A stretch of DNA of 64,000 nucleotides from an uncultured Chlorobiaceae bacterium (GCA_964523395.1 CAZFXS010000004.1:141581-205580); one strand, 5' to 3'; shown: positions 6,246 to 52,455, counted from the stretch's first letter. Numbers and translations are program-made. Notes: generated from the letters alone by a model not told the origin.

Positions 6246-6248
6246 GAG

Positions 6249-6326: not shown

Positions 6327-6335
6327 TTAAAAGCG

Positions 6336-35123: not shown

Positions 35124-35152
35124 TTGACAAAGCAATTCAATTCTTGTATCTT
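35124..35152 (+). promoter_or_regulatory. Sigma70 promoter
   Basis: TTGACA-N17-TATCTT. Confidence 0.7.
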
Positions 35153-35200
35153 TACGCAATTCTAAACCCACTATCCACCATTTTTCTAAGAGGAGTTAGT

Positions 35201-35875
35201 ATGAAGAAGCACGTTTCATTTTTGTTTATCATTCTTGCAGTGCTGGCACTGGTGGCCGGATGTAAGAAAGATGAAAACCCGGTAAATCCCGGAGGCGGCG
35301 GAACCACCTCAACGACATATACCGGCGTATTTTCCAATCCTGCGGAGACAGGAAGGTTGACACTTGAGGTTCCCACGGCTAAAGTTTTAGCCGGCGATAC
35401 CACTCTTATTTCCGGGAAAATATTTCTGGCAACAGGAGATACCGTTCTTCTCTCAGGATTCTTTGTTCATTCCACCGGTCAGATTCATGTTGCCGGCGGC
35501 GGCTACGTTTTTGACGGCACATATGCGGCCGGCCAGATCACGGGCAGCTACACAGGTCCAAATGGAAACGGCGGTTTCACCGTGCGTGAAGCAACCGGAG
35601 AAAATACAATCAAAGTGTATTGCGGCCACTACCAGCAAAACTCTCCGGGAACAAACAGCGGAAGTTTCACTATGATTGTCGACGGAACCTCGGTAACAAT
35701 TATGGTCGACGGAGATGATCCGCTCTACGGTACAGTCGATGGCTCCACCGTGAATATTTATTTCCCTGGAACTACAGTGGTTCTCGCTACTGGCACAATT
35801 AGCACAGAAGGTGCCTCCGGACAATATAATACGGGCGACGAACAGGGTACCTGGTCAGCAACACCCTGCCAGTAA
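35201..35875 (+). CDS. Hypothetical lipoprotein, Gly/Thr-rich beta protein
   Basis: AGGAG SD; MKK...LALVAGC lipobox. Confidence 0.8.
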   Translation: MKKHVSFLFIILAVLALVAGCKKDENPVNPGGGGTTSTTYTGVFSNPAETGRLTLEVPTAKVLAGDTTLISGKIFLATGDTVLLSGFFVHSTGQIHVAGGGYVFDGTYAAGQITGSYTGPNGNGGFTVREATGENTIKVYCGHYQQNSPGTNSGSFTMIVDGTSVTIMVDGDDPLYGTVDGSTVNIYFPGTTVVLATGTISTEGASGQYNTGDEQGTWSATPCQ

Positions 35876-36030: not shown

Positions 36031-36327
36031 ATGTTTGTCATTAGAGATATTATGTACTGCAAGCCGGGACAAGTCCGCGCAATGGTTGAGAAGTTCAAGG
36101 AGCTCAACAAAGTGTTGAAAAAATTCGGATACCCGCCCGGGAGAATCCTTACCGACGTCTGTGCTGAACGGTACTGGACGGTTGTCTCGGAGATGGAGGT
36201 TAAGAACCTCGAAGAGTACACCGAGATGTCGAGAAAAACCATGAAGGACAAAAAACTCCAGCAAGCCATGAAAAACTATCACGACCTTGTAGACCACGGA
36301 CGTCGTGAGATTTATATGGTGGAATGA
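36031..36327 (+). CDS. NIPSNAP-like / dimeric alpha-beta barrel small protein
   Basis: GGAGG SD; F.IRD..YCKPG...RILTD....YWTVV.E pattern; fold assignment is inference. Confidence 0.65.
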   Translation: MFVIRDIMYCKPGQVRAMVEKFKELNKVLKKFGYPPGRILTDVCAERYWTVVSEMEVKNLEEYTEMSRKTMKDKKLQQAMKNYHDLVDHGRREIYMVE

Positions 36328-36376: not shown

Positions 36377-39300
36377 ATGGTGACAACACGTATTGATAAC
36401 AAACGGAACGCCATCTTCATTTTTTTTCTTCTCTGTCTGCTAGGATTCAACACCGGATCTCCGGCTCAACAGGCAAATCCTGCGTTAACGTTTTACACCG
36501 CAACTTCATTTTCACAAGGTGAATTCGGGTTCGGCCTTTCTGTCGTATCGGATTCTTCAATCTGGTATACTACAAATACCGGTGTGTTTCATTTTGACGG
36601 CCGCCGTTCGATGAAACATCTCGACGCATCCCGGTTTCATACATCGCAAATAGAAGTCCTTCTAATCGATGCCGTCTCCGATAACAACGTCTGGGTTCTC
36701 GGGCACGATTCGAAAACGTGGAAAAAAACAATGTTCCACTTCGATGGAAACACATGGAAGTCAGTTTCGTTTCCCCAGGTATTCACCGATCCGAATGATG
36801 ACCTCGTCGTCTTCAGACTGCGGATGTATTCATACAATAATCGTACACTCGGTTACGCCGCGGGACAGGATGGCCTTGTCTATATGTATGACGGAACCAC
36901 ATGGAAGATTATCCCGAGGTTTACCAACGAAACACTCCGCGGACTGCGGATCTATGCGCCAAACAATGTGTGGGTGGGCGGAAAAAACGGAGCAATATTT
37001 CATTACGACGGTCAGCGCTGGATTCCCGCCCAGTTTTCTGACGCCTCAAACAACATTTACTATTTTGATCTGGCATTTCCGTCACAAACAGACGGGTGGG
37101 CAGTTGGAAAAGGAGGCATAGCACATTTCAACGGACAAAGCTGGCGGACCGTTTCTACCCCCACTACATCTACAATTACCACAATCACCATGATTGCGGG
37201 GGATAACGGATGGGCGGTGACAGACAATGGTACGGTTCTCCATTATGATGGAATGCATTGGAACATCTTCAAACAAATGTCCCGGGATGCCGGCCTTACT
37301 TCTCTGCAGGCATTGGAACAACACGAAAAGTTTACTTTATATTTTCTTAATACGGAAGGGGTGGTCGTTTCGTATTGGGGAATTGTTCCTTCGTTTACCG
37401 ATGCGTCGGCATCTTCAAATATTCATCTGTATGGCGGAGACGCATTACTTGCTGATTTCGACAACAATCAAACTGAAGATTTGATAACATCGGCTTTCAC
37501 TTCCTTCCCCGACAGAATATACTCAAATCGTGGCGACGGTTTTTTTACTGAAATGACAAACCAATTACACACTACAAATACTCCTCTTGCAACCGCAACC
37601 CGGCTTGCAGACCTGGATAACAATGGATTTGTCGATGTGTACCAGACACAATCCCCGGCGCGCGACGTTTGGTACAGAAATTTCGGGTCGTGGAAATTTG
37701 AGCCTGTGACATCACCTGTTGCATTCCCCACCCTCGATGGCCGCTGTGTCTCAAAATTCGCCGACATGGACTGCGATGGCGACTTGGATTTAGTCTATAT
37801 GCAGAGCCAGGCATCGGAAGTTCAATGGCCATTTGCAATTTTTACAAACGACGGGATTGGAAATTTTTCACCCCCGAGAACTATTGGCCGGCCAATAGCT
37901 GCCGGGGGAATCACATACTCATTTTTTATTGCCAACCTTAATGACGACAACATCCCTGATCTCTTTAAATTCAATCTCGGCGATAAATGTGAATTATATT
38001 TTTATAACAGCGGTGAGGTGCGCGATACGGCAACCTGGGCTGGAGCTGACGGCACATTCTTCGCTGCATCTCCAAACATTACCTGGGCCGCCCCAATCGA
38101 TATCAATAATGATGGTTCAATGGATATTTGTATGGTCTCCAGAACAGGCCAGGCCGCGTTCTTCCTGAATAATGGGAAGGGAAAATTTACTCCCGCAAAT
38201 TCTCTTGCCTTCGATCCCCGTGGAGAAAATCCCATGGGAAATTTTACCGATATCGATTGCGACGGTGACATGGATTTATTTCTTGTCGATCGCTTTTATA
38301 AAAACGACAACGAAGCGTTCTCTGAGTACAGGGAAGTTTCGTTTCGCCAAACTTCTTTTCCAACGTTCAGCGACTTTGATGGCGACGGCGATCCTGATAT
38401 TATCACTTCGGCATATCGCGACAATGGCAGGTTGTATGTCCTGAAAAATGAGCTCAACCCCTCCGGCGCAGTCCGCATTTCCGTGAACGGCATCAGAAGC
38501 AATTCTTTTGGAGTTGGCGCCCGAGTCAATCTCTGGAAATATCATGATGCCGGCAAGGAACTTGTTGATGTCCGCGAAGTTATTTCGCCCGGCCCGCTCT
38601 ATTTCTACGTTGATTCCACCAACCGGTATGATCTTGATGTAAAGTTCCCAAGCGGAATCGAAGTTCATTCGGCTTCGATTCAACCCGGGACGCATGAAAT
38701 ATCAGAATTCTCTTTTCCGATGAATTACGTGTGGGATTTTTATTACTCGCTTCAGCGATCATGGAAATACACAAACGGAATACTGGAGCTCGTAAAACTC
38801 GGAATTTTTGGCGGGATGTTTATTGTCGCTTTTCGGGTTTCCAAAAAATTCAAAGCCGACCGGTACGTGCGCCATCCGTTATTTATTGCCGCCATGTTGC
38901 TTTTGTATATCCTCATCATCCATGCGACGGTTCGGAACGGAACGGTCATGGCAACAATTCTTCCGCTGGGAGCTGTACTTCTTATCAATGCCGGATGGGT
39001 TGCAACAACGCGCAACATCGTGCTTCGGCGGGAAGCAAATTATGTTTCTCATTTCAGATTGCTGGAACTCCTCGGCGAAGGAGGAATGGGAAAAGTATAT
39101 AAAGCCGCTGACAGCATCACAAAGAATATCGTAGCGGTAAAAGTTCTCAATCCGGCAATTATGAAAGATGTCGAAAACCGGAAACGGCTGAGAAACGAAG
39201 GCAATATTCTTTCGTCGTTTTCTCATCCGAACATTGTGAAAGTATTTGAGGTCGGAGAAACAGAAACACAAAGTTTTATCGCGATGGAATATCTGCCGGG

Positions 39301-39841
39301 CGGCACACTCCGGCAGCATCTCGAGAAAACGTATCCACTCCCCACACAAGAACTTGGCAGGATATTTTTACAGATATGCGACGGCGTGTCAGAAATTCAT
39401 TCGCGCGATATCGTCCATCGCGACCTGAAAACCGGCAACATTATGCTCGACGACAATACTAACATCCGCATTATGGATTTTGGATTGTCAAAGTCGCCGC
39501 TGGTAACAACCATGACCACACTTGGCACTGTCATCGGAACACTCGGCTATGTTTCACCGGAGCAAGTGACAAGTATGAATGTGGACCGCCGTGCCGATAT
39601 TTTTTCGCTCGGCGTGGTATTGTATGAATTACTCACAAACCAGCTTCCGTTCAAAGGTGAAAATGAAATTGCCGTTATCCACTCCATCTTCAATACGATT
39701 CCTCCTGCTCCTTCCACACTTACCACCGGTATTCCTTCCTCACTCGACGGAATTATCTCAACGTGTCTTCAAAAAAATCCCGACGACCGCTATCAGTCTG
39801 TCGCAGAACTCCGCGTTGCTCTTGAAAAGGAATTTTGCTAA
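36377..39841 (+). CDS. Receptor-like Ser/Thr kinase: signal peptide, (H/M)(Y/F)(D/N)G repeats, seven FG-GAP-like repeats, ASPIC/UnbV-like domain, three TMs, kinase
   Basis: Six H(F/Y)DG..W-type repeats; DFDNNQ, DLDNNG, DMDCDG, NLNDDN, DINNDG, DIDCDG, DFDGDG; GIRSNSFGVGARV; LGEGGMG, VAVK, HRDLKTGN, DFG, SPEQ. Confidence 0.88.
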   Translation: MVTTRIDNKRNAIFIFFLLCLLGFNTGSPAQQANPALTFYTATSFSQGEFGFGLSVVSDSSIWYTTNTGVFHFDGRRSMKHLDASRFHTSQIEVLLIDAVSDNNVWVLGHDSKTWKKTMFHFDGNTWKSVSFPQVFTDPNDDLVVFRLRMYSYNNRTLGYAAGQDGLVYMYDGTTWKIIPRFTNETLRGLRIYAPNNVWVGGKNGAIFHYDGQRWIPAQFSDASNNIYYFDLAFPSQTDGWAVGKGGIAHFNGQSWRTVSTPTTSTITTITMIAGDNGWAVTDNGTVLHYDGMHWNIFKQMSRDAGLTSLQALEQHEKFTLYFLNTEGVVVSYWGIVPSFTDASASSNIHLYGGDALLADFDNNQTEDLITSAFTSFPDRIYSNRGDGFFTEMTNQLHTTNTPLATATRLADLDNNGFVDVYQTQSPARDVWYRNFGSWKFEPVTSPVAFPTLDGRCVSKFADMDCDGDLDLVYMQSQASEVQWPFAIFTNDGIGNFSPPRTIGRPIAAGGITYSFFIANLNDDNIPDLFKFNLGDKCELYFYNSGEVRDTATWAGADGTFFAASPNITWAAPIDINNDGSMDICMVSRTGQAAFFLNNGKGKFTPANSLAFDPRGENPMGNFTDIDCDGDMDLFLVDRFYKNDNEAFSEYREVSFRQTSFPTFSDFDGDGDPDIITSAYRDNGRLYVLKNELNPSGAVRISVNGIRSNSFGVGARVNLWKYHDAGKELVDVREVISPGPLYFYVDSTNRYDLDVKFPSGIEVHSASIQPGTHEISEFSFPMNYVWDFYYSLQRSWKYTNGILELVKLGIFGGMFIVAFRVSKKFKADRYVRHPLFIAAMLLLYILIIHATVRNGTVMATILPLGAVLLINAGWVATTRNIVLRREANYVSHFRLLELLGEGGMGKVYKAADSITKNIVAVKVLNPAIMKDVENRKRLRNEGNILSSFSHPNIVKVFEVGETETQSFIAMEYLPGGTLRQHLEKTYPLPTQELGRIFLQICDGVSEIHSRDIVHRDLKTGNIMLDDNTNIRIMDFGLSKSPLVTTMTTLGTVIGTLGYVSPEQVTSMNVDRRADIFSLGVVLYELLTNQLPFKGENEIAVIHSIFNTIPPAPSTLTTGIPSSLDGIISTCLQKNPDDRYQSVAELRVALEKEFC

Positions 39842-41883: not shown

Positions 41884-42858
41884 TTACGGAACCGCTTTCC
41901 CTCTTGCCGCCACAAACAATGCATACCACTCCTCACGGCTCAGTTCCACTTTATCTGCCAGACAACTTGCAATGATACGTTCCGGGTTTGTCGAACCGAT
42001 AATCGGCTGAATGCCTGCCGGATGCCGTAAAAGCCATGCGAGCATAATCGCCTCTTGAGAAGTTTGCTTTGTTTTTGCCATTGACGAAATCATTTCCGTA
42101 AGATTCCTCAATCGATCATCAGCTTGTTGAGTCTGATTAAACAGCCTACCGCCTGCAACCGGCGCCCATGCCTGAATCATAATATTGTTCAACCTGCAAT
42201 ACTCAAGTGTCCCCGGCGCGGACGTGTATTGTCCGCCTTCCATATTTGCCACAACACCTTCATTAATAAGATGATTGTGAAGAAGGTTCAGCTCGACCTG
42301 GTTGATAACAAGCGGCTGTTGTACGTATTTTTGCAGCAGCGCAATTTGTCCGGCGGTATGATTGCTTACACCGAAGTGGTGCACTTTTCCGTTTTTATGA
42401 AGCTCGTCGAATGCCCTTGCGACTTCCTCCGGCTCAACAAGCGGATCCGGACGGTGCAATAACAAAACATCAACATACTCTGTCCGGAGACGGCGCAGAC
42501 TTCCTTCAACCGCAGAGATGATATGTTCATAACTGAAATCATATCGTCCGGGAACACCGGCAGACGGATCGTCCTTGCGGCGGATGCCGCATTTTGTCTG
42601 GAGAATAATATTCGCGCGCATGCCGGGATGTTCTTGCAGAATTTCACCAAAGACCTGTTCCGATTTCCCGCGTGAATAAATATCCGCATGATCGAACAGC
42701 GTAATACCCTGTTCATATGCCGTCATAACAGCCGCAACCGCTTTCGACTTCTGATCAACGGATATGGGATTCCCATCCCACGATCCGCCGATGTTCATAC
42801 AGCCGTAGGCAATGCGAGAGAGAGTGAGATCGGTATGATAGATATGAAAAGTTCGCAT
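41884..42858 (-). CDS. Aldo/keto reductase (YdhF-like)
   Basis: YGCM, FDHADIY, TKCGI, DVLLLHRPDPL, GVSNH, PIIGS. Confidence 0.92.
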   Translation of the reverse strand: MRTFHIYHTDLTLSRIAYGCMNIGGSWDGNPISVDQKSKAVAAVMTAYEQGITLFDHADIYSRGKSEQVFGEILQEHPGMRANIILQTKCGIRRKDDPSAGVPGRYDFSYEHIISAVEGSLRRLRTEYVDVLLLHRPDPLVEPEEVARAFDELHKNGKVHHFGVSNHTAGQIALLQKYVQQPLVINQVELNLLHNHLINEGVVANMEGGQYTSAPGTLEYCRLNNIMIQAWAPVAGGRLFNQTQQADDRLRNLTEMISSMAKTKQTSQEAIMLAWLLRHPAGIQPIIGSTNPERIIASCLADKVELSREEWYALFVAARGKAVP

Positions 42859-42903
42859 GGTAGTTTTTCTTACCTTGGCCGTGACGCAGATTATTCCGTC
42901 AAT

Positions 42904-44139
42904 TTACTTAGTATCGGATTTTGGATCAACAATAGCTCCGACAAAAAGTATTAGACCGGTCTCATCATCTACAATTGCGAAGAAAAAAGGGTGGTCAACT
43001 ATCATTTCAAACGGCTTTGGTGGATCCGATCTAAGCGGCATGGTAGCGCAAACATCTAGCAACGTAATTGCGGCAGCTTCTGTCCCTTCTTCGTTCACGT
43101 CAAGATATGTTTTATGAATTACATCACTTATCATTACTGAAGATTGCGTCATTCGACTAAAATCCGCGCCCCCGTCGAACGCAATGCTCATGCCAAAGCT
43201 TTTCAACACATCAACCAAAGACGCAGCGTAATTTATCTTATACTTTGGCACACCGATTAGTCCGTATCGCCGAGAAACCGCGGATGTTGCCCTACTCCAC
43301 CCTGCCGTACTAAGACCTTCCAAAAAAAGGTGGATACCCTCTCGTTCTTGAGGAAGAACAATGCACATGCTAAATCGTTTACCATACGGAATGCTGACCA
43401 ATTGAAATTCTGAGCTTTCAAAATATTCAAATGTACCATATTGATGCATCCGTGGATATTTTTTCTCAGACCCACCAAGCAACATAAACGGCATCATTTC
43501 TGTTTGGATGGTTTCAAACGGTTTTGTCCATTCACCATTGAAGTAAATCGCGTTAAGAATGACCAGGAGATCATCTTTCTTAAATTGATCGATAATTTTA
43601 TCGATCTTCCCATGTGTCTTATTCCTCACCCATTCATTTATTTCTTCTGTCGCGGATGGTTGCGCAAAATCCTTCACGAAGGTTTCAACAGAATACTGTT
43701 CATTGCAATCTTTCACAAACTCTGGCTTGAGTTCAAACGGTTCGTTTAACCAAAGTGAGTTCGCGATGTTGAGCTCTGCCGAACTATCTGGTACCATTAA
43801 TAAATTCATTAAAAGGGAATTTGACTTGTTAATCCTGTCTTGTGTAAACTCCTGGAGCTGTAGCGCTGTCTTGATTGAAGTTTCCGTTGCCCCGGCTGCA
43901 CCGTTGTTGATAATAGAAAGCGCGTAAAAGATACTTACAGGGGAAATAAATATGTTTTTTTCTGGTTCCCGTGAAGCCAAGGTTTTCAGAAGTTTAAAAC
44001 CAAATTCATTGACGGCGGATATGTAATCGATGTTGATTTCTGATTTCCGAGTACCGTCTTGAAAAGCAGCGCTTTGCTTCGCGCAAAAAGGTAGGAGGGT
44101 CACAAGTGCCGCAAGATATTTGACTGTATCAATGTTCAT
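42904..44139 (-). CDS. Secreted serpin (serine protease inhibitor)
   Basis: NIFISPVSI, LNAIYFNGEW, hinge EEGTEAAA, DHPFFFAI...LFVG; N-terminal signal-like segment. Confidence 0.93.
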   Translation of the reverse strand: MNIDTVKYLAALVTLLPFCAKQSAAFQDGTRKSEINIDYISAVNEFGFKLLKTLASREPEKNIFISPVSIFYALSIINNGAAGATETSIKTALQLQEFTQDRINKSNSLLMNLLMVPDSSAELNIANSLWLNEPFELKPEFVKDCNEQYSVETFVKDFAQPSATEEINEWVRNKTHGKIDKIIDQFKKDDLLVILNAIYFNGEWTKPFETIQTEMMPFMLLGGSEKKYPRMHQYGTFEYFESSEFQLVSIPYGKRFSMCIVLPQEREGIHLFLEGLSTAGWSRATSAVSRRYGLIGVPKYKINYAASLVDVLKSFGMSIAFDGGADFSRMTQSSVMISDVIHKTYLDVNEEGTEAAAITLLDVCATMPLRSDPPKPFEMIVDHPFFFAIVDDETGLILFVGAIVDPKSDTK

Positions 44140-44166
44140 GGGGTATATCTCCTTTGTTAAGATTTT

Positions 44167-45006
44167 TTAAACCACCTTCCAATATGCCGCGCTGTCATCA
44201 ATCTTTTCAAGATTGCATTGAATAGAATTCAACGCAATAAATTCCGTCACAGCACGCCTGCACGCTGGCCAAGAGTAGTAATCATCCACAATAACAAATC
44301 CGCCCTTGTTGACTTTGTGATAAAGATTCGTTAACGCATCCATCGTTAATGAGTAGAGGTCGCCGTCGAGACGGAGAACCGCAAGCTTGTCAACCGGCGC
44401 GCTCGGAAGAGATTCATTAAACCACCCCGGAATGAATTTCACGTTGTCATCCAGCAATCCGAAACGTTCAAAATTCGATTTTACTTTTTCCATGGAAACT
44501 TTCAGGTAATCGTTTTGGCTCATATCCCAACCATCATCACCCGATTTCGGTGCCGGCAATCCTTCGAATGAATCCGCCGGCCAGATATTCCGTTCGGTGA
44601 TATTGTGCGCTTTCAAAAGCGCGCGGAAGAAAATTGCAGTTCCGCCGCGCCAGACTCCGGTTTCAATAAAATCGCCTGGAACGTTGTTGCGCAACACTTC
44701 TTCAACACAATACTGGACGTTATCCAGCCTCCGGTGTCCCACCATAGTATAACAGACAAGCGGCCAGCCGCTTCCTTCGTCGCGTTCATGCTGACTGAAC
44801 GCGCGTTGTTTCACCAGCAAAAGATTTTTCTTCTTCAGAAACTTCACAAGCGCGTCACGGAGAGGCACAATGACCGGCCGCAGTACCGGTGGAACCGCAA
44901 ACCCCGGTGTCCCCGAATGAATCAGTGCCCACGAACTTTCATCGTAGATGGAGCCTGTAAGAATTTTTTTCAACAGCTCGAGATATTGGTGGTCAGCTTC
45001 TGTCAT
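44167..45006 (-). CDS. TylF/MycF/NovP-family O-methyltransferase
   Basis: TMVG.RRLDN, GDFIETGVWRGG, DSFEGLP, PGWF.ESLP, LRLDGDLY, VDDY; start at ATG 45006. Confidence 0.92.
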   Translation of the reverse strand: MTEADHQYLELLKKILTGSIYDESSWALIHSGTPGFAVPPVLRPVIVPLRDALVKFLKKKNLLLVKQRAFSQHERDEGSGWPLVCYTMVGHRRLDNVQYCVEEVLRNNVPGDFIETGVWRGGTAIFFRALLKAHNITERNIWPADSFEGLPAPKSGDDGWDMSQNDYLKVSMEKVKSNFERFGLLDDNVKFIPGWFNESLPSAPVDKLAVLRLDGDLYSLTMDALTNLYHKVNKGGFVIVDDYYSWPACRRAVTEFIALNSIQCNLEKIDDSAAYWKVV

Positions 45007-45723: not shown

Positions 45724-45738
45724 CGGCACGGGATTTGT
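45724..45738 (+). promoter_or_regulatory. Putative sigma54 (-24/-12) promoter
   Basis: CGGCACGGGATTTGT versus consensus TGGCACGnnnnTTGC; GG-N10-GT, so the -12 C is replaced by T. Confidence 0.6.
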
Positions 45739-45777: not shown

Positions 45778-45972
45778 ATGCAAAAACACATACTCATCAT
45801 CGATGATGATACACAGGAGCTTCGCAAGTTAAGAGAGATTCTTACACGCGAAGGGTACGATATCATGACGGCAACTGATAAGCAGACGGCAATTCAGATT
45901 TCCGAGAAAGTACCAATCGGTTTTATCCTTGCAAAAGCATCGATGCTCGGTTTTCCCAATGAAAAACAATAA
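45778..45972 (+). CDS. Half-receiver micro-protein (64 aa) lacking the phospho-acceptor Asp
   Basis: ILIIDDD...LREILTREGYDI.TA; third strand GFILAK has no Asp; protein ends there. Confidence 0.75.
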   Translation: MQKHILIIDDDTQELRKLREILTREGYDIMTATDKQTAIQISEKVPIGFILAKASMLGFPNEKQ

Positions 45973-46002: not shown

Positions 46003-48096
46003 ATGAACACTTTGTTGAAAACGATTTGTATTGCTCTTTGCGTTTATACAACCGGTCTGTCTCAATGGCTGCAAACTTCGGGTCCGGAAGGCGGCGCCGC
46101 CTTCGCAATCTTTGCCGACGGCAGTAATCTCTACGCGGGTATGGCGGGAAATGCCGGAGTGTTCCGGTCAACCGACGGCGGTGCGACCTGGGAGCAAAAA
46201 ATCAACGGCATGAACTATCAGTCCACCACTGTTATTAGCAAAAGCGGTTCCTATCTTCTCGCCACCGGAACTGTCGGTTTGTACCGCTCAACCGATAACG
46301 GCGACACCTGGGTTGCGGCTACAGGATTACCGCCGGGACACGGCGTGAACTCACTGGCAGTTGACGGAGCGAATGTTATCGCGGGAACATCCGGAAAAGG
46401 CATTTATGTTTCAACCGATAATGGCGATACATGGACACCTGCAAGCACAGGACTTCCCGGCGCAGGCGCCACCACCACGGTCGGAAATGTTGTTATCAAC
46501 GGTTCAACCATTCTCACCAGCGCTTCGGATTTCGGTACGACAACAACAATGTACCGTTCCACAAATTTTGGCGCTTCATGGACAGCGGCTGCGACCGGCC
46601 TTCCCGCCGATTATTCATTGTATTACGGAATGTGCATCGACGGATCTACAATCTATGCCGGCGGCGCGTATCTTTATAAAACTACCAACAACGGCGACAC
46701 CTGGACACCGGTCGAGAATGGAATTCCCAACTACTCCAGCATCATGAGTATTTCCGCAAACGGGACTTCCATCTTCGCGGCTGCAATGAATTACATCTAC
46801 CGCACTACGGATGGCGGCTCTAACTGGAGTCCAGCAACCGGCGGTTTGCCGTTTATGAATTTCATGTCGGTACGGATTGCAGGTTCAACTGTCTACGCCG
46901 GTTCAATTGCCAATGGTATATACAGTTCAACGGATAATGGGGTCACGTGGACACAAAAAGTCAACGGTTTAAAGGCAAGAGATATGAGTGGATTCCTTAT
47001 CGACGGGACGACGCTCTATGCCAACGGCAACAGCATATTCAAGACTTCAGATAACGGAGATACGTGGGAGAATGTTCGCGGCAATCTTAAAGACTCCTCA
47101 AGCATGCCTACACTTGTGTATGTCAACGGTTCAACGATGTTCGAACGCGATTTCCCGGCGACAGGCCTCGAGCGTTCAACGGACGGCGGCGCTACATGGA
47201 CTGTCGTTGGCAACGGTTTGTCACCATTCGGCACTGTCACCGGAATCGTCGATGTCCCTGGCGGATTGCTGACTGCCAGCAACCGTGTCTATAAAAGCAG
47301 TGATAACGGCGATAACTGGGTGCAGGTTGATTCATCGCTTGGATTGTTTGTCAGTTTTTCAGCTTTGACAAAAATCGGCACTACTGTTTATGCATATGGA
47401 CTCGGGGTTGCCAAATCCACAGACGACGGGGCAACATGGGTAAAAGCCGATTCTGGTTTGCCGGCGTTTTATTCACCGTCTACTCTTGTCGGAAATGGTT
47501 CAGGTTTATACGTATCAAGCGGGTTTACGTCTGGCATCTATCGTTCAACCAATGACGGGCAATCATGGTCGTTGTGGACCAGCGGCGCTTATTCACAACT
47601 GCTCATTCACGGAAACGACCTTTTCGGATGCCGGGACAATGACGGCATCTTCATTCGTAAAAACTTCACAGGCGCTTTTACCAGAATTTCTACCGGGCTG
47701 CCGAGCCCTAATTTCCTTTACACGTTTGTCATCCACAATGGATGGATGTTTGCAGGTACCGGCGGTAATAGTGTCTGGCGCAGGCCTTTGTCGGATGTTA
47801 CGGCTGTGGAAGAGATCGCCGGAACTCTTCCAACGGAGTTTATGCTTTCTCAGAATTATCCAAACCCGTTTAATCCAATGACAAACTTCGAATTACGAAT
47901 TGCGGATTTCGGATTTGTGACGCTTCGGGTGTACGATGTACTTGGAAGGGAAGTTACATCTCTGGTGAACGAGACGCTTCAACCCGGGACCTACAAAGTA
48001 TCGTGGGACGCAGGCAATCAGACCAGCGGAGTTTATTATTATAAACTACAGGCGGGAAATTATTCCGAAACGAAAAAGATGTTGCTCGTCAAATAA
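46003..48096 (+). CDS. T9SS type A sorting-domain protein with BNR/Asp-box propellers
   Basis: Signal peptide; many S(T/S)D(N/G)G.TW Asp-boxes; QNYPNPFNP...VYDVLGREV...GTY...GVYYYKL...KKMLLVK. Confidence 0.9.
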   Translation: MNTLLKTICIALCVYTTGLSQWLQTSGPEGGAAFAIFADGSNLYAGMAGNAGVFRSTDGGATWEQKINGMNYQSTTVISKSGSYLLATGTVGLYRSTDNGDTWVAATGLPPGHGVNSLAVDGANVIAGTSGKGIYVSTDNGDTWTPASTGLPGAGATTTVGNVVINGSTILTSASDFGTTTTMYRSTNFGASWTAAATGLPADYSLYYGMCIDGSTIYAGGAYLYKTTNNGDTWTPVENGIPNYSSIMSISANGTSIFAAAMNYIYRTTDGGSNWSPATGGLPFMNFMSVRIAGSTVYAGSIANGIYSSTDNGVTWTQKVNGLKARDMSGFLIDGTTLYANGNSIFKTSDNGDTWENVRGNLKDSSSMPTLVYVNGSTMFERDFPATGLERSTDGGATWTVVGNGLSPFGTVTGIVDVPGGLLTASNRVYKSSDNGDNWVQVDSSLGLFVSFSALTKIGTTVYAYGLGVAKSTDDGATWVKADSGLPAFYSPSTLVGNGSGLYVSSGFTSGIYRSTNDGQSWSLWTSGAYSQLLIHGNDLFGCRDNDGIFIRKNFTGAFTRISTGLPSPNFLYTFVIHNGWMFAGTGGNSVWRRPLSDVTAVEEIAGTLPTEFMLSQNYPNPFNPMTNFELRIADFGFVTLRVYDVLGREVTSLVNETLQPGTYKVSWDAGNQTSGVYYYKLQAGNYSETKKMLLVK

Positions 48097-48130
48097 TGCT
48101 GTTTATCCTTTAGAAGGAAGGAAAATTGAA

Positions 48131-50230
48131 ATGAAAATGTTTGTGTGTGTGCTCGCGACTATTGTGCTCTGTAACATTGCAGCGGCTCAATGGATACAAA
48201 CAAATGGTCCATCCGGCGGTACTGTGACACGTCTTGTCACTAATGAGACAAACGGTTACCTTTTTGCGCTGGCAAGCGGTGACGCGTACCGTTCAACCGA
48301 TCAAGGTACCACCTGGACGCGAAGCACTGCCAGTCTTCAGGCAAATCTCGGCGCTACTACAATAACAGCATCGGGAACATCGGTCTATATCGGCATCGGA
48401 AGCGGAAATACCACATATATCCTCTCCCGTTCGACCGATAACGGCGACACATGGACACCGGCAACCGCAACAGGCATACCGGCATTCTATATTCCTTCCG
48501 CAATGACAGTTACCGGTTCCAGACTGCTGCTCTACGCAACCTACCTTCTTGGTGGAGGAAAAATGTTCGCTTCCACCGACGGAGGTGAAAATTTTACCGA
48601 ATCCGGAGCAGGTTTACCGACCAATTTCGCCGCAGGATATTTTACGCAGAAGGGTTCAACAATCTTTGCCAGCAACACTAACCCGGGAATCTATCAATCG
48701 ACTGATAATGGAGTAAACTGGACAAAATCCAATTCTACCATCGGAGGCATCACCGGATTGACATCAAACTCTTCAGGAGTCTTTGTTTCTACCAGCACAA
48801 CCGGAGTTTACCGATCTAATGGCACGGATACGGTCTGGACAAAAATTAATCCCGACACTCCGTCGAACTTTACTTCTTCGATTCTCGCGACATCCACAAA
48901 TCTTTTCATTGCTCTTGGCGGCGCGATGATGCGCGCAGACCAAAATGGTGGCTCGTGGGACAGTGCACGCGTCGGACTCCCACCGTATAACGCAGGCACA
49001 GCCATCAGCGCCATTACTAAAACCGGTTCAAGCATCCTCTGTGCGTACGCAAAGCACGGCATTTACCGCACTACCGATAACGGCGTAAACTGGTTTCAGT
49101 CTCACGAGGGAGTGAAGTCGTTAAAAATCAACGGCATTCATGCAAGCAATGGATATTTATTTGCAGCGGGAGATCAATATGGGAATTTCAGAAGCGCCGA
49201 TCACGGAGACACGTGGACAGAAATCAACAATGGTATTTCCGTAACAGCTGGCTGGTTTTGTTTTGCGCGCGTCGGATCAGATGTGCTCGCAGGCGCCGGT
49301 TCATCTCTGCTGTACCGGAGTTCAGATAACGGAAATAACTGGACATTAAGCAACTCCGGATTCGCTCTTACCAACTCATTCGCGTTTTATGTTGAAGGCA
49401 ACACCGTCTACACCACAGGAGCAGCCGGTGTATCGAAATCGACAGATGGCGGATTGACGTGGAACACGCTTCCTGCGGGTTATCTCTTCTATGAAGGAGG
49501 GCTCGATATCTGGAAAGACGGTTCGAACATCCTGACCGGGTCTAATGTCGCAAGTCATCGCTCAACCGATGACGGTGCGTCATGGACAACAACCGCCGGA
49601 GCGATAGGAGCATTTACACAAATGGATTCAGTTCTTTTCAACGCTTCGCTTACTCTTGGTGTAAGAAAATCAACAGATCATGGTGCGAGCTGGACGGCGA
49701 CAGGAAGTTTTCCGTTTACGGTTGGCCCGCAATGTCTTACGGCCAAAGGGCAGGATCTTTATGCCGGAACGAATGACGGTGTTTATCGCTCAACAAATTA
49801 CGGAACTACGTGGACTGCAATTAATGACGGCTTTGCCCCGAAAACCTCTATCTACAAAATAACATTTGACGACCAGTATCTTTATGCGGGGACAGTTACG
49901 CGCAGTGTCTGGCGGCGGCCGCTTTCCGAAATCACTGACGTGAAGGAAATCTCTCAGGAAATTCCCTCTTCATATTCTCTCAGCCAGAATTATCCGAACC
50001 CGTTTAATCCAACGACAAATTTCGAATTACGAATTGCGAATTTCGGATTTGTGTCGGTGAAAATATTTGATGTGCTTGGAAACGAAATAACGACGCTGGT
50101 AAATGAATCGCTACAACCCGGAACTTACAATGTATCTTGGAATGCAAGCAATCAGCCCAGCGGCGTGTATTATTACAGGCTTTCGTCAGGGTCATTTTCC
50201 CAAACAAAAAAATTATTACTGATGAAATAA
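48131..50230 (+). CDS. T9SS type A sorting-domain protein with BNR/Asp-box propellers (paralog 2)
   Basis: Same architecture; GGAAG upstream. Confidence 0.9.
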   Translation: MKMFVCVLATIVLCNIAAAQWIQTNGPSGGTVTRLVTNETNGYLFALASGDAYRSTDQGTTWTRSTASLQANLGATTITASGTSVYIGIGSGNTTYILSRSTDNGDTWTPATATGIPAFYIPSAMTVTGSRLLLYATYLLGGGKMFASTDGGENFTESGAGLPTNFAAGYFTQKGSTIFASNTNPGIYQSTDNGVNWTKSNSTIGGITGLTSNSSGVFVSTSTTGVYRSNGTDTVWTKINPDTPSNFTSSILATSTNLFIALGGAMMRADQNGGSWDSARVGLPPYNAGTAISAITKTGSSILCAYAKHGIYRTTDNGVNWFQSHEGVKSLKINGIHASNGYLFAAGDQYGNFRSADHGDTWTEINNGISVTAGWFCFARVGSDVLAGAGSSLLYRSSDNGNNWTLSNSGFALTNSFAFYVEGNTVYTTGAAGVSKSTDGGLTWNTLPAGYLFYEGGLDIWKDGSNILTGSNVASHRSTDDGASWTTTAGAIGAFTQMDSVLFNASLTLGVRKSTDHGASWTATGSFPFTVGPQCLTAKGQDLYAGTNDGVYRSTNYGTTWTAINDGFAPKTSIYKITFDDQYLYAGTVTRSVWRRPLSEITDVKEISQEIPSSYSLSQNYPNPFNPTTNFELRIANFGFVSVKIFDVLGNEITTLVNESLQPGTYNVSWNASNQPSGVYYYRLSSGSFSQTKKLLLMK

Positions 50231-50274
50231 ACGGGAGTGCGGGGGCAACAACAAACAATAGGAGGAAACATTGT

Positions 50275-52440
50275 ATGAACATACTGTTACAGATCTGCCT
50301 GATTATCGTTGCAACATCGCTGACAGTTGCACAGCCTTTTTGGGAACGGTTGCCGGGACCAAATGCTACTCACAGCATTAATTGCCTTAAGGAGGATGCC
50401 GCCGGTGGAAAATTGTATGCCGGTACTGCCCTCGGTGGCGGGATATATGTATCGGCCGATAACGGGGCTACGTGGTCCCTTAAAGCTTCTGGTTTGGATC
50501 CGAACGCTTCAATCCTTGATATTGAAACCGATAACGCCGGCAACGTGTACGCCCTTGGTGTTAAAACATACAAATCAACAAACGGAGGCGATACATGGGA
50601 AAAACTTGACAATAGCACCGACGGCATGACTACATTACATATTACATCCGGAGGAGTTATTTTTGCAGGGCAAGAAACAGCTGTAGGAAACGGGATTACC
50701 AGATCAACCGATGGCGGAACTACCTGGGAATTTGCCAGAACCGGCCTTCCCACAACCATTCTCGGCCCATTCACCTATTATCGCAGTGTCTCGAGTATTA
50801 CCTCCGATGGTTCCGGAAATCTCTACTGCACAGTAAATGGCGGAAATGCGTCCACTGAAGCCGGAGTGTACAAATCAACAAACAATGGCGATACATGGAC
50901 ACGCACAAGCAACGGTTTGCTTGCAAACGTTAGCGTCGAGCCGGTACTGTACAGTCCGAACGGAATGATATATGCCGCGGTCAGAAACCGGGTGTACCAC
51001 AGCACTGACGCAGGCGCAAGCTGGGTTCTCGGCGATTCCATTCCAATGGCGAACTCCACCCTCATCAGCCGGCTGGCGGTGAATTCTTCGCATCAGATTT
51101 TTGCAGGTACAACGGCCGGAGTCTTCCGTGCCGCGAAAGGCGGAATTGGCTGGGCTTCAATCAACGTTCCTTCAAGCAGTAATTACGATTTCATTGTTAC
51201 TTCAGCAAACGCATACCTTGCGGCACCCCTTGAGATCTGGGGAACGCACGGCGGCATTCACCAATCAACCGACGATGGGGCTACATGGAACACATTAAAC
51301 AACGGCATAAATAACACACCGACATTCGCTCTCAAAGTCGGCTCCTCCGGCGTTATTTTGAACGGACTTGGCGGCGGCAGAGTTGAATTCTCTTATGATA
51401 ATGGTGCCACATTTACGCGGGCGTATCTTTCATACACCGGCCTCTTCACATTTGCTGCTCTTGCCGCGTTTGAAGAGAATCCTTCCGGCACCATTGTCGC
51501 AGCAACCGGAGAAGGGCTGCACACATCAACTGATCAAGGTGTTACGTGGACTAAAACATCGTCAGTCTCAAATCAGCGCGCATTGACATTAGACCAGAGC
51601 GGGAATTTTTTCGCAGCCAACGGAAGCGGCGCGTACAAATCAACAGATAACGGACAAACGTGGAATTCACTCGGCGGGGGCGGTGATGCCTATGGCATAT
51701 TGGTAACACAGGCCGGTACAATTCTGACAGGAACGTATAACAGCGGTGTTAACCGCACAACCGACGGCGGTACAACATGGACGAATTCGGGTACCATCGT
51801 GTTTGGTAATGTAACGATAGGAAAATTTGTTCAGCTTGACAATGGAACGATTTATACGCACGCTCTTCTCGGAATTTTCAAATCGACGGATGACGGCGCA
51901 ACATGGGCAGCCCTGACAGGAACACCCATTGGCGTACAATCCAGGAAAATTGAAAGCACCGGCAATATATTACTGCTTGGTACTCCGGAGGGGCTTTACA
52001 AAACCATAGACGGCGGCGCAAACTGGACAAAACACGCCGACGGCCTCATGAATACTGTTCTCGATCATCTTTCTGTTGGACCCGATGGACGGTTGTACGG
52101 CGCAGGCGGCGCCGGAATTTACCGCACAACAAATCCGATTACCACCGGCGTCGAACTATCATCCAATATCATTCCATCAGCGTTCGAACTTACACAGAAT
52201 TATCCGAACCCGTTTAACCCAATGACAAATTTCGAATTACGAATTGCGAATTTCGGATTCGTGACGTTACGTATTTACGATATGCTTGGAAAAGAAGTCG
52301 CATCGCTGATTAACAAAACGCTTCAACCCGGAATATACAAAGTTTCGTGGGACGCGGGTGCACAACCCAGCGGTGTATATTTTTACCGTCTCACCGCAGG
52401 TGAATTTAATCAAACAAAACAAATGATACTCATCAAATAA
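50275..52440 (+). CDS. T9SS type A sorting-domain protein with BNR/Asp-box propellers (paralog 3)
   Basis: GGAGG SD before ATG 50275; Asp-boxes; NYPNPFNP C-terminal domain. Confidence 0.9.
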   Translation: MNILLQICLIIVATSLTVAQPFWERLPGPNATHSINCLKEDAAGGKLYAGTALGGGIYVSADNGATWSLKASGLDPNASILDIETDNAGNVYALGVKTYKSTNGGDTWEKLDNSTDGMTTLHITSGGVIFAGQETAVGNGITRSTDGGTTWEFARTGLPTTILGPFTYYRSVSSITSDGSGNLYCTVNGGNASTEAGVYKSTNNGDTWTRTSNGLLANVSVEPVLYSPNGMIYAAVRNRVYHSTDAGASWVLGDSIPMANSTLISRLAVNSSHQIFAGTTAGVFRAAKGGIGWASINVPSSSNYDFIVTSANAYLAAPLEIWGTHGGIHQSTDDGATWNTLNNGINNTPTFALKVGSSGVILNGLGGGRVEFSYDNGATFTRAYLSYTGLFTFAALAAFEENPSGTIVAATGEGLHTSTDQGVTWTKTSSVSNQRALTLDQSGNFFAANGSGAYKSTDNGQTWNSLGGGGDAYGILVTQAGTILTGTYNSGVNRTTDGGTTWTNSGTIVFGNVTIGKFVQLDNGTIYTHALLGIFKSTDDGATWAALTGTPIGVQSRKIESTGNILLLGTPEGLYKTIDGGANWTKHADGLMNTVLDHLSVGPDGRLYGAGGAGIYRTTNPITTGVELSSNIIPSAFELTQNYPNPFNPMTNFELRIANFGFVTLRIYDMLGKEVASLINKTLQPGIYKVSWDAGAQPSGVYFYRLTAGEFNQTKQMILIK

Positions 52441-52455
52441 TCAGGAGAACAATCA

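Follow-up and report, generated by a model that had tools for sequence, protein, structure and literature searches.

A receptor-type Hanks kinase with a two-propeller CRTAC1-like ectodomain encoded beside a sigma54 activator

Bacterial Hanks-type Ser/Thr kinases almost always have the kinase domain first and the sensor beyond the membrane, and for most of them little is known of what they sense or of the transcription that they control directly. The 64,000-nucleotide stretch of DNA analysed here (the window) encodes a kinase with the reverse, eukaryote-like order, and raises the question of what such a receptor senses, how the signal could cross the membrane, and to which genes it is passed. 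We consider it probable that the protein senses a ligand in the periplasm, perhaps a glycan, passes the signal to a sigma54 activator through Ser/Thr phosphorylation, carries an exchangeable ectodomain, and regulates a set of mini-REC and BNR genes. What is said of the cassette beyond its architecture and synteny, including this mechanism, we infer. In most bacterial Ser/Thr kinases, the ligand, the transmembrane signalling, and the phosphorylated transcription factor are hard to approach, but in this system they are directly testable. The host is a diderm of the Fibrobacterota-Chlorobiota-Bacteroidota (FCB) group, most likely of the class Ignavibacteria, and the outside location of the ectodomain is taken to be its periplasm.

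Domain organization of the receptor kinase

The plus-strand open reading frame ends at position 39841 and can start at GTG 36305 or ATG 36377. The ATG results in a typical signal peptide and an N-terminus that agrees with those of the homologues, nine of which align end to end at full length. The hydropathy maximum of the signal peptide spans residues 12-30, and the homologues have equivalent N-termini; the peptide and its cleavage site were read by eye. From the N- to the C-terminus, the protein contains the Sec signal peptide, a Ycf48/BNR-like propeller, an FG-GAP propeller, an ASPIC/UnbV-like sandwich, three hydrophobic helices, and the kinase (Table 1). The ectodomain of ~750 residues is formed by two seven-bladed beta-propellers and a membrane-proximal beta-sandwich. 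The structure models, built from shallow alignments of 7-9 sequences, have pLDDT values of 74.6 and 80.2 and agree with the domain order. A preliminary description of the gene had proposed a receptor kinase with an integrin-alpha/CRTAC1-like ectodomain. Pfam, sequence motifs, the family alignment, and the models support the core of this proposal, a Ser/Thr kinase of the receptor type whose FG-GAP/ASPIC ectodomain resembles CRTAC1. The link to integrin alpha is marginal: integrin alpha4 matches the profile with E 0.0066, and the Pfam scan contains no Integrin_alpha2.

Table 1 Features of the receptor kinase and of the genes downstream of it (window coordinates)
Feature	Extent	Coordinates	Strand	Basis and remarks
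Receptor-type Hanks Ser/Thr kinase, whole gene	1154 aa	36377..39841	+	ORF list; Pfam Pkinase and FG-GAP_3; stop included
Signal peptide	aa 1-31	36377..36469	+	n-region basic; h-region AIFIFFLLCLLGF; probably cleaved after SPA
Propeller 1, seven-bladed, Ycf48/BNR-like	aa 37-334	36485..37378	+	Motifs, PSII_BNR, profile, fold match
Propeller 2, seven-bladed, FG-GAP/VCBS	aa 340-691	37394..38449	+	FG-GAP_3, motifs, CRTAC1 matches
ASPIC/UnbV-like beta-sandwich	aa 698-776	38468..38704	+	BLASTP to PF07593 of P0143, CRTAC1 profile match; adjoins membrane
Juxtamembrane helix, WDFxYSxxRSxKY	aa 782-797	38720..38767	+	Helix in model; invariant columns
Three transmembrane helices	aa 801-821, 834-852, 857-878	38777..39010	+	Hydropathy, charge counts, model
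Hanks-type Ser/Thr kinase domain	aa 893-1151	39053..39829	+	Pkinase, motifs, PknB fold match
Sigma54 enhancer-binding protein (EBP)	576 aa	39901..41631	+	Pfam; 60 bp 3' of kinase
Sigma54-like -24/-12 element	GGCACGGGATTTGT	45725..45738	+	40 nt upstream of mini-REC ORF
Mini-REC, truncated receiver-like ORF	64 aa	45778..45972	+	Sequence, tblastn
Three tandem BNR/Sortilin-Vps10/DUF6242 proteins with T9SS sorting tails	~700 aa each	46003..52440	+	Pfam
PQQ_2/BamB-like beta-propeller protein, last of cluster	860 aa	52456..55038	+	Pfam

Propeller 1 carries the H(Y/F)(D/N)G..W motif in six blades: five H(Y/F)(D/N)G copies start at residues 72, 121, 209, 250, and 289, and YMYDG is located at residue 170. 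The six repeats listed previously are thus present, but the modelled propeller has seven blades (28 strands, pLDDT ~85-90), the seventh of which closes the ring without a motif. The assignment of propeller 1 to the Ycf48/PSII_BNR group is marginal in sequence. With the propeller scanned alone, PSII_BNR (PF14870) reaches 28.9 bits (cut-off 27), compared with 23.9 bits in the full protein, and Ycf48 matches the family profile with E 1e-7. The seven-bladed fold agrees with the assignment (TM 0.70 to Ycf48 structure 5OJR), which implies no functional equivalence.

Propeller 2 is recognized by Pfam as FG-GAP_3 (92.7 bits against 26.9, E 2e-26, six stretches) and also as FG-GAP, and searches with it return hundreds of CRTAC1-family matches. 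Its seven loops of the Ca2+-type DxDxDGxxD pattern start at residues 360, 412, 463, 520, 575, 625, and 666. Five of them are strict DxDxDG loops, and those at 360 (DFDNNQ) and 520 (NLNDDN) are degenerate in the protein from the window. The acidic positions of the loops are invariant throughout the nine-member family alignment. The models contain 28 strands in seven blades, in agreement with the earlier reading of the seven repeats as one complete propeller.

The sandwich that follows propeller 2 gives no Pfam match to UnbV_ASPIC (PF07593) even at E<=10, either in the full protein or as an isolated region. Nevertheless, sequence comparison identifies the domain as a homologue of the CRTAC1 ASPIC/UnbV domain, as originally suggested. 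Residues ~714-774 align collinearly in BLASTP with the PF07593 domain of the CRTAC1-family protein P0143, and a weak PF07593 match is on record for the relative P0258. Murine CRTAC1 (9ETN), the best sequence match of the family profile in the PDB (E 1e-13 overall), is matched across its ASPIC domain (CRTAC1 residues 422-487). In the model, the sandwich has seven strands.

The kinase domain is predicted to be catalytically complete and PknB-like, as expected for the intact kinase described before. Pkinase (PF00069) matches residues 894-1140 with 199.2 bits (cut-off 31.7, E 1e-58). The catalytic motifs are GEGGMG (900-905), K922, E941, HRD (1014-1016), N1021, DFG (1034-1036), SPE (1060-1062), D1074, and R1138, and they are invariant in 9/9 aligned sequences. 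The activation loop is rich in Thr. PknB (6I2P) is the closest structural relative (E 2.8e-20, 34% identity), and the best Foldseek matches, PknB, Stk1, PknE, and PknI, have target TM values of 0.75-0.84, indicating a bilobal kinase fold.

Genes downstream of the kinase

The gene immediately downstream encodes a sigma54 enhancer-binding protein (EBP), the obvious candidate substrate of the kinase. It has an N-terminal helical region, a GAF domain, an AAA+ domain with GAFTGA, and HTH_8. Pfam assigns it to the sigma54 EBPs (PF00158, Sigma54_activat, 230 bits, together with HTH_8), and the GAFTGA and Walker A motifs are conserved in an alignment of six orthologues. Conserved Ser/Thr residues are also present, for example in the motif LY(T/A)SGIxF(S/T)(S/T)ETE. 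EBP orthologues of 54-66% identity lie directly 3' of the kinase in 10/11 loci (the window, L001, L002, L003, L004, L006, L008, L009, L088, and L089); L014 has none at this position.

It is possible that the two genes are merely co-transcribed, with the activator responding to a small molecule in its GAF domain and the kinase acting on other, pleiotropic substrates, as is usual for PknB-type kinases. Bacterial Hanks kinases typically have many substrates, the EBP has a complete GAF sensor of its own and could be regulated independently, it has neither an FHA nor a receiver domain as the sign of a phosphorylation target, and the locus L014 has a kinase but no EBP beside it. However, the adjacency is kept among EBP-bearing loci with kinase identities as low as 52%, including a locus with a different ectodomain. 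It also persists over gaps of 2 bp to ~1.2 kb, with a 4 bp overlap in one locus. In L002, a gene for a PTP/DSP-like phosphatase is located between kinase and EBP, which fits a phospho-switch. We therefore regard mere co-transcription as unlikely and favour signalling from the kinase to the EBP.

The putative targets of the EBP form a candidate regulon, for which a promoter can be recognised. The GGCACG-N4-TTG element upstream of the mini-REC ORF is the only exact match in the window. L001 and L004 carry the same element at the corresponding position, and L003 and L089 have GGCAT-N5-TTG. Overall, in five loci whose surrounding DNA is not conserved, the mini-REC ORF is preceded by GGCAY-N5-TTG at a distance of 20-140 nt. 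Several observations count against the proposed pathway: L014 has no EBP, the EBP and the mini-REC/BNR cluster of the window have three reverse-strand genes between them, the -12 element is TTGT instead of the canonical TTGC, and a scan for the sigma54 consensus across the whole window shows no enrichment.

The mini-REC is conserved in five other loci (54-82% identity, tblastn), and weak Response_reg matches are on record for it. It is followed by the BNR genes (46003-48096, 48131-50230, and ~50137-52440), the products of which are putative regulated cargo. BNR/Sortilin orthologues are located 3' of the kinase-EBP pair in L001, L003, L004, and L089. The nearest sequences in the PDB are GH74-type proteins (E 3e-9, a weak match) and Ycf48. 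The PQQ_2/BamB-like gene has an orthologue at the same position in L001. In L001 and L089, a gene for a Por_Secre_tail protein is found just upstream of the cassette.

Relatives and exchange of the ectodomain

The best whole-length fold matches of the ectodomain are the periplasmic sensors BT4663, BT3049, and BT4673. BT4663 matches over ~745 residues with E 5e-17 (TM 0.51-0.53 for 4A2M and 0.45-0.46 for 4A2L). Like the receptor kinase, the hybrid two-component (HTCS) sensors of Bacteroides thetaiotaomicron have two seven-bladed propellers and a membrane-proximal beta-sandwich, followed by the membrane and a cytoplasmic kinase. The two systems differ in the type of the propellers (here Ycf48-like and FG-GAP), in the sandwich (here ASPIC/UnbV), in the number of transmembrane helices (three here and one in HTCS), and in the output, which is a Hanks kinase with a separate sigma54 activator here and a HisKA-HATPase-REC-AraC fusion in HTCS. 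Pfam finds neither Reg_prop (PF07494) nor Y_Y_Y (PF07495) in the kinase from the window at E<=1, and no histidine-kinase or REC domain. For BT4663, a scissor-like movement has been reported as the mode of signalling (PMC8534201). The hybrid two-component sensors are the most informative systems for comparison; the preliminary description mentioned neither them nor the conserved association with the GAF-sigma54 EBP.

CRTAC1 (9ETN) is seventh in the fold ranking (E 9.5e-15) and the first target other than BT4663 chains. In the CRTAC1/ASPIC-UnbV family, as in the receptor kinase, ASPIC/UnbV comes after a DxDxDG-bearing FG-GAP propeller, and the sequences are collinear over 90-95% of this region. 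However, the CRTAC1-family proteins are soluble and secreted, with ~500-650 residues, whereas here a second propeller precedes the shared part and three transmembrane helices and a kinase follow it. The EGF-like domain of CRTAC1 is not found by Pfam in the receptor kinase. The ectodomain is a large structured sensor built from domains otherwise known in secreted proteins (CRTAC1) or histidine-kinase sensors (HTCS), and it places the CRTAC1/ASPIC fold, which is poorly understood, in a bacterial setting.

Two sister proteins, P0287 and P0301, have a Reg_prop and Y_Y_Y sensor according to Pfam. The kinase of P0287 (TAK65377.1, from a Bacteroidota MAG and annotated as "hypothetical protein") is 63% identical to the family consensus, whereas its ectodomain is of a different type and cannot be aligned with that of the double-propeller family. 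P0287 shares the sensor-transmembrane-kinase order, with one W-rich helix instead of three, and its locus retains the downstream cassette of a GAF-sigma54 EBP (64% identity), a mini-REC (73% identity), and a BNR T9SS protein. Because the same kinase, activator, mini-REC, and BNR cassette occurs with a Reg_prop and Y_Y_Y sensor, the ectodomain appears to be an input module that can be exchanged, whereas the output pathway is conserved and has been fitted with different sensors.

The ectodomain may instead bind proteins or report on the envelope in the manner of integrins or Tc toxins, with T9SS cargo, the status of the outer membrane or peptidoglycan, or cell-cell contact as the input. FG-GAP propellers of integrins and of YenB bind proteins, the family profile matches YenB with E 2.5e-9, and many genes of the cassette encode T9SS cargo, to which the upstream Por_Secre_tail genes can be added. 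This is rather improbable, because the closest fold to the whole ectodomain, BT4663, is a proven oligosaccharide sensor, the sister proteins bear the BT4663-type sensor itself, and sequence comparison detected no homology between propeller 1 and the BNR cargo proteins. The favoured ligand, a carbohydrate or an envelope-derived molecule, is suggested by the analogy of the ectodomain to the Bacteroides hybrid two-component sensors. A glycan is possible on the basis of this fold analogy and the weak GH74-like similarity of the cargo. More tentatively, the whole cassette could be a Ser/Thr-kinase counterpart of the Bacteroides HTCS/PUL logic, in which an exchangeable periplasmic double-propeller sensor of glycans or the envelope, either Ycf48-like with CRTAC1-like or Reg_prop/Y_Y_Y, acts through direct phosphorylation of a GAF-sigma54 EBP by a Hanks kinase on T9SS-secreted, GH74-like surface proteins. 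If this is so, a eukaryote-style receptor kinase would reach sigma54 transcription by a route not described before in the FCB superphylum.

Membrane region and signal transmission

The three transmembrane helices anticipated in the preliminary description are recovered as hydropathy segments, and all are helical in the model. Detection by hydropathy in nine homologues gave the same pattern, except that the third helix of P0008 is below the threshold. The loop after the first helix is rich in Lys and Arg (+3 to +6), and the segment after the third helix has a charge of +2 to +4 where all three helices are detected; both features are conserved in the family. This distribution of positive charge fits an N-terminus on the outside and a C-terminus on the inside. 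The sister proteins, with their single transmembrane helix between sensor and kinase, likewise have an odd number. Hydropathy, charge bias, and comparison thus support the proposed topology of a periplasmic ectodomain and a cytoplasmic kinase. It is very unlikely that the first helix is interfacial or that the second and third form a re-entrant hairpin, which would make the topology and the receptor reading wrong: the first helix does contain an invariant Glu, which counts against the topology, and a Lys, and the connector between the second and third has just 0-11 residues in homologues with both detected, but a periplasmic kinase would be without ATP, the proposed orientation agrees with the charge bias, the ectodomain-membrane-kinase order is kept in sister proteins that have one canonical helix of the HTCS type, and the model shows each of the three segments as a long helix. 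In the three-helix region, residues E804, Y844, H849, and R853 are invariant among nine homologues, as are S791, R794, and S795 of the juxtamembrane helix. The linker between the third helix and the kinase has only ~15 residues.

Ligand binding to the periplasmic ectodomain would alter the geometry of a dimer, and the change, transmitted through the helix bundle, would cause the activation loop, which is rich in Thr, to be autophosphorylated in trans. The adjacent EBP may then be phosphorylated, or activated in another way, by the kinase and would drive the sigma54 promoter before the mini-REC ORF and the genes of the T9SS-secreted BNR/GH74-like propeller proteins.

The mycobacterial receptor kinase PknD has an N-terminal kinase, one transmembrane helix, and an extracellular six-bladed NHL propeller. 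It shares with the receptor kinase the use of a beta-propeller as the extracytoplasmic sensor, but compared with PknB and PknD the order here is reversed, PASTA and NHL domains are absent, and the membrane linker is very short. The profile of Stk1/PknB PASTA kinases (NF033483) was rejected, since it reaches 299.8 bits against a cut-off of 450 and matches the kinase part alone. Eukaryotic receptor kinases (plant RLKs and animal Ser/Thr and Tyr kinases) similarly have a signal peptide, a ligand-binding ectodomain, a membrane passage, and a C-terminal Hanks kinase. They differ in having one transmembrane helix instead of three, whereas the kinase here is of the bacterial PknB type with a presumed sigma54-activator output, and there is no sign of a eukaryotic origin.

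The sensor-transmembrane-kinase order is reported for only 1/42 families in an atlas of bacterial Ser/Thr kinases from 2025 (bioRxiv 10.1101/2025.01.12.632604). Within the searched library, no paper describes the architecture of the receptor kinase. The architecture is not a one-off. It is common to at least ~35 clusters (50% identity) in Ignavibacteria, Calditrichota, and Bacteroidota MAGs and represents a well-defined, conserved, and modular system. Close copies are present in only 8/185,579 species genomes, and all bear the annotation "protein kinase" alone. All carriers found are metagenome-assembled genomes or metagenomic contigs, with no cultured isolate among them.

Domain organization of the receptor kinase

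The receptor kinase is encoded by a single long open reading frame on the plus strand, which extends in the ORF list of the window from 36305 (GTG) or 36377 (ATG) to 39841. Translation from ATG 36377 gives a protein of 1154 residues with the N-terminus MVTTRIDNKRNAIFIFFLLCLLGFNTGSPAQQ, in which hydropathy and sequence identify a basic n-region, a 13-residue hydrophobic core, and an S-P-A site. Because homologues have similar N-termini in the alignment, and the signal peptide follows ATG 36377, the coordinates 36377–39841 and the signal peptide proposed in the preliminary description are retained. A lipoprotein reading was rejected, since FLLC is a poor lipobox and its cysteine varies among homologues. 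Two upstream ORFs, encoding a 243-residue lipoprotein-like protein (35144–35875) and a 98-residue protein (36031–36327), gave no informative Pfam hit. A search of 13 loci found neither conserved beside the kinase, and both are therefore placed outside the system.

Two AlphaFold2 models were analyzed, one of the full-length protein (pLDDT 74.6) and one of the ectodomain alone (residues 35–782; pLDDT 80.2, pTM 0.62). Propeller 1 contains six H(Y/F)(D/N)G..W repeats at residues 72, 121, 170 (YMYDG), 209, 250, and 289. The six motifs had been counted correctly in the preliminary description, but the propeller is larger than they suggest, since the number of strands points to a seventh, motif-less closing blade. 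In fold, propeller 1 resembles Ycf48 (TM 0.70 to 5OJR, fold search with the ectodomain model); the family profile matches Ycf48 with E 1e-7, and propeller 1 scanned alone narrowly passes the Pfam threshold for PSII_BNR (28.9 bits vs 27). Propeller 2 carries seven Ca-type loops of the form DxDxDG (residues 360, 412, 463, 520, 575, 625, and 666), five strictly D-x-[DN]-x-[DN]-G and two degenerate, and forms one full propeller, as had been proposed. A Pfam scan of the whole protein places six segments of FG-GAP_3 (E 2e-26) and also reports FG-GAP and, weakly, PSII_BNR/Ycf48. When nine full-length homologues (40–51% identity) are aligned, the acidic residues of the loops, the Trp and Gly of the repeats, and every catalytic residue of the kinase prove invariant. 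The strong Pfam E-values and this invariance argue that the repeats and loops are not due to chance.

Coordinates of domains of the receptor kinase (in residues) and of neighboring genes (in nucleotides of the window or of the locus named)
Feature	Position	Strand	Basis
Propeller 1	residues 37–334	+	28 strands, seven blades, in both AlphaFold2 models
Propeller 2	residues 340–691	+	28 strands, seven blades, in both AlphaFold2 models
ASPIC/UnbV-like beta-sandwich	residues 698–776	+	seven strands in both models
Amphipathic helix, conserved	residues 782–797	+	AlphaFold2 models
Aldo/keto reductase, serpin, TylF-like methyltransferase genes	41884–45138	−	Pfam/ORF list
Mini-REC, window	45778–45972	+	tblastn
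Mini-REC, L001	13502–13678		tblastn
Mini-REC, L003	8388–8573		tblastn
Mini-REC, L004	13449–13625		tblastn
Mini-REC, L088	13292–13435		tblastn
Mini-REC, L089	15920–16105		tblastn
Three tandem ~700-residue BNR/Sortilin-Vps10/DUF6242 proteins with T9SS tails, then 860-residue PQQ_2/BamB-like propeller protein	46003–55038	+	Pfam

Propeller 2 and the sandwich have hundreds of matches among bacterial CRTAC1 family proteins (PF13517 + PF07593), with E-values of 1e-15 to 1e-22 and coverage of 90–95%, and a collinear BLASTP alignment to one of these proteins places residues ~714–774 on its PF07593 domain. The family profile matches the crystal sequence of murine CRTAC1 (9ETN) with E 1e-13, running through the ASPIC/UnbV part, and 9ETN was also found by fold (E 9.5e-15, ectodomain model). 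The Pfam model UnbV_ASPIC was not detected at any threshold in the full receptor kinase or in the isolated 115-residue region; the related protein P0258 has a weak match on record. Because of the Pfam failure, the ASPIC/UnbV homology, which the earlier reading had also recognized, is argued from alignment and profile. Integrin alpha similarity is marginal (family profile, E 0.0066), leaving CRTAC1 as the part of the originally proposed integrin-alpha/CRTAC1 likeness that stands. By sequence and fold, propeller 2 and the sandwich are a CRTAC1-like unit, a divergent CRTAC1/ASPIC module.

The receptor kinase belongs to the Hanks family. Its Pkinase domain (residues 894–1140, Pfam E 1e-58) is intact, as previously claimed, with the GEGGMG motif, K922, E941, HRD, N1021, DFG, a Thr-rich activation loop, SPE, D1074, and R1138, and is bilobal in both models. 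The nearest fold is PknB (34% identity, E 2.8e-20), in a search with the full-length model that matched kinase structures only; the ectodomain matches came from the separate ectodomain model. Identity as a PASTA kinase was rejected (NF033483, 300 bits vs a cut-off of 450).

Membrane topology and relation to known sensors

Three hydrophobic segments between the repeats and the kinase (residues 801–821, 834–852, and 857–878) form long helices in both models. Their topology was deduced from hydropathy, charge bias, and comparison with homologues. In eight of nine homologues, basic residues prevail by a net +3 to +6 in the loop after TM1 and by +2 to +4 in the stretch of 15 residues that follows TM3; the third helix of the ninth, P0008, is under the hydropathy threshold, so its charge counts are not comparable. 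The connection between TM2 and TM3 has 0–11 residues and little charge. This N-out/C-in bias fits a predicted layout of external ectodomain, TM1, cytoplasmic loop, TM2–TM3 hairpin, and internal kinase. The sister proteins P0287 and P0301, recovered by HMM search, consist of Reg_prop repeats, Y_Y_Y, one TM, and Pkinase. Their single W-rich TM (PPWWKTWWAY...) separates a sensor of another type from a kinase 63% identical to that of the receptor kinase family, and this odd number of crossings independently supports the N-out/C-in orientation. The hydropathy-based analysis thus agrees with the initial proposal of propellers outside and kinase inside, and the receptor-kinase architecture and topology are very probably correct. 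Since the host is an FCB-group diderm, "outside" is the periplasm. Many proteins of the window have T9SS sorting tails, and the PEPCK encoded next door is 80–87% identical to proteins labelled solely as from Ignavibacteria, Ignavibacteriales, and Bacteroidota MAGs. Three residues are invariant in nine family members and may be relevant to signalling: E804 inside TM1 (38786–38788), and H849 (38921–38923) and R853 (38933–38935) at the TM2–TM3 turn.

The best PDB matches of the 748-residue ectodomain model are BT4663 (4A2M/4A2L, E 5e-17, TM 0.51–0.53, ~745 residues), BT3049, and BT4673. The periplasmic domains of these hybrid two-component systems (HTCS) of Bacteroides thetaiotaomicron are composed of two seven-bladed propellers and a membrane-proximal Y_Y_Y sandwich, and BT4663 signals by a reported scissor-like movement (PMC8534201). 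Because the Reg_prop and Y_Y_Y signatures are absent from the receptor kinase according to Pfam, the likeness is one of layout, not of membership. The kinases of the sister proteins are as close to the family as its members are to each other, which indicates that the same kinase lineage bears either sensor type. By analogy, the whole protein may work like an HTCS sensor joined to a PknB-like kinase.

The receptor kinase differs in domain order from typical bacterial receptor kinases. In an atlas of bacterial serine/threonine kinases (STKs), only one of 42 families is reported to have a membrane segment ahead of the kinase, and Bacteroidota appear nowhere in the text (bioRxiv 10.1101/2025.01.12.632604). 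An internal contrast to the reversed order is provided by a second Hanks kinase in the window (3078–5222, plus strand), which has the ordinary kinase-first order with Pkinase at residues 14–267 and C-terminal TPR repeats. The protein P0010 (977 residues, high-GC) follows the usual order, with an N-terminal kinase, one TM, and ~14 C-terminal "GTILHWDGxxW" repeats of the type seen in propeller 1. HWDG..W-type repeats therefore recur as extracytoplasmic sensor modules in bacterial STKs of both domain orders.

Conserved gene neighborhood

The enhancer-binding protein (EBP; GAF, Sigma54_activat, and HTH_8 domains; 576 residues) is encoded 60 bp 3' of the kinase gene, with its true start at ATG 39901. 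Full-length EBP orthologues (54–66% identity) directly follow the kinase in homologous loci L001, L002, L003, L004, L006, L008, L009, L088, and the Reg_prop-type sister locus L089. The adjacency is thus present in 10 of 11 loci including the window, the sole locus without an EBP being L014 (6 kb of downstream sequence). The EBPs conserve the GAFTGA and Walker motifs in the alignment. The L003 orthologue (4000–5736) is called as two genes (467 and 102 residues), and tblastn aligns it as one piece of 578 residues; the split probably stems from an internal stop codon or from erroneous sequence in the metagenome contig. In L002, a gene for a 170-residue PTP/dual-specificity-phosphatase-like protein (6015–6527) is located between the kinase and EBP genes, with a remnant in L006 (4922–5023). 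This insertion, confined to one lineage, may encode a cognate phosphatase; the window showed no counterpart. Multihaem cytochrome (NrfH/NrfA-like) genes are positioned just 5' of the kinase in Calditrichota-type loci (L002 248–1765, L004 6051–7943, L005, L007, and L009 8211–9725), in some with YjbQ nearby. They are absent from the window, where the lipoprotein-like and 98-residue ORFs precede the kinase instead.

A second block, the truncated receiver-like mini-REC followed by BNR proteins, is present in L001, L003, L004, L089, and, 4 kb beyond the EBP, in the window; L088 has a mini-REC-like ORF alone. The aldo/keto reductase, serpin (bacterial, 411 residues), and TylF-like O-methyltransferase genes that separate the blocks in the window seem to be an insertion, because the blocks are contiguous in L001 and L004. 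Mini-REC (59–64 residues, 54–82% identity across loci) resembles the first half of a receiver domain (MxKHILIIDDDTQELRKLREILTREGYNIMTATD...), with K, G, or D at the phospho-acceptor Asp position. Each locus with the second block encodes one to three BNR proteins, and the PQQ_2 propeller protein closes the block in the window and L001. Among solved structures, the BNR proteins come closest in sequence to GH74-type "cellulose-binding family II" enzymes and to Ycf48 (E 3e-9 to 1e-7). Homology of propeller 1 to this secreted cargo was rejected (hhalign probability 0.5%).

In every locus examined (the window, L001, L003, L004, and L089), a correctly oriented sigma54-type element immediately precedes mini-REC, which in turn immediately precedes the BNR/T9SS genes. 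The window element, GGCACGGGATTTGT, is the sole exact GGCACG-N4-TTG in the 64 kb; its counterparts are GGCACGAAGCTTGT in L001, GGCATGAACTTTGC in L003, GGCACGCCATTTGC in L004, and GGCATAAGGGTTGA in L089. The elements were compared by eye, MAFFT having given no alignment of the short element, and three of the five deviate from GC at -12. The surrounding DNA does not align across loci, which argues that the element was kept by selection and not by recency. A scan of the window for TGGCAC-N5-TTGCW with two mismatches found no enrichment (32 sites vs 31.6 expected); the informative test was solely the comparison of the same position across loci.

Proposed signalling pathway and distribution of the family

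Sequence and models establish the domain order, the intact catalytic site, the Ca-type loops, and the membrane segments with their charge bias, and the loci establish the kinase–EBP pairing, the recurring promoter-like element, and the cargo genes; the pathway that follows is inferred from them. The periplasmic double propeller would bind a ligand, and a dimer rearrangement would pass through the helix bundle and the ~15-residue linker. The kinase may then trans-autophosphorylate its Thr-rich loop and phosphorylate the GAF-EBP, which would turn on the mini-REC/BNR operon from its sigma54 promoter. The link from kinase through EBP to sigma54 has about an even chance of being correct. The recurrent gene pairing speaks for it. 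In an alternative reading, kinase and EBP are neighbors without phosphotransfer and the EBP is driven by its GAF ligand. For the ligand in the proposed pathway, the best candidate would be a carbohydrate or a piece of the envelope, given the HTCS analogy, the sensors of the sister proteins, and the GH74-like cargo; a glycan, suggested by analogy, is nonetheless a rather doubtful candidate. The ectodomain may instead bind protein or envelope rather than sense a small ligand. A wrong membrane topology is improbable given the family charge bias and the single-TM sister proteins.

Nine full-length relatives were all that a word-indexed search recovered from 5.8 billion proteins, the sole informative name among them being "protein kinase [Calditrichota bacterium]". 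The complete double-propeller ectodomain is present in only 8 of 185,579 species-representative genomes, all MAGs (Calditrichota/Calditrichaceae, Ignavibacteria, and Bacteroidota labels, one "Deltaproteobacteria" bin, and one "Chlorobiaceae" bin). An exhaustive HMM search of 1.84 billion representatives widened the family to at least ~35 clusters formed at 50% identity (1120–1350 residues, 450–810 bits), collinear over most of the profile; one is named "protein kinase [Ignavibacteriales bacterium]". Six scanned cluster members have the same PSII_BNR-like, FG-GAP, and C-terminal Pkinase layout with three hydrophobic helices. Since at least ~35 clusters share it, the architecture is no singleton and represents a real, moderately sized, entirely uncharacterised family. 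The literature searched, on FG-GAP with Hanks kinases, bacterial CRTAC1/ASPIC, GAF-EBPs with Hanks kinases, and Reg_prop/Y_Y_Y with kinases, contained no description of the architecture or of the kinase/GAF-EBP cassette. The system is clean, testable, and modular, but it is known from MAGs alone and its mechanism is a proposal.

Elsewhere in the window, the product of a minus-strand gene (26484–28355) combines an Nramp metal transporter with a universal stress protein (Usp) domain at the C-terminus. A Tricorn-like protease (5–2734, plus strand; PD40 propeller, Tricorn C1, PDZ, and Peptidase_S41) is encoded by an ORF that begins at base 5 and may extend beyond the 5' end of the window; Tricorn-like genes are also found near the kinase in L002.
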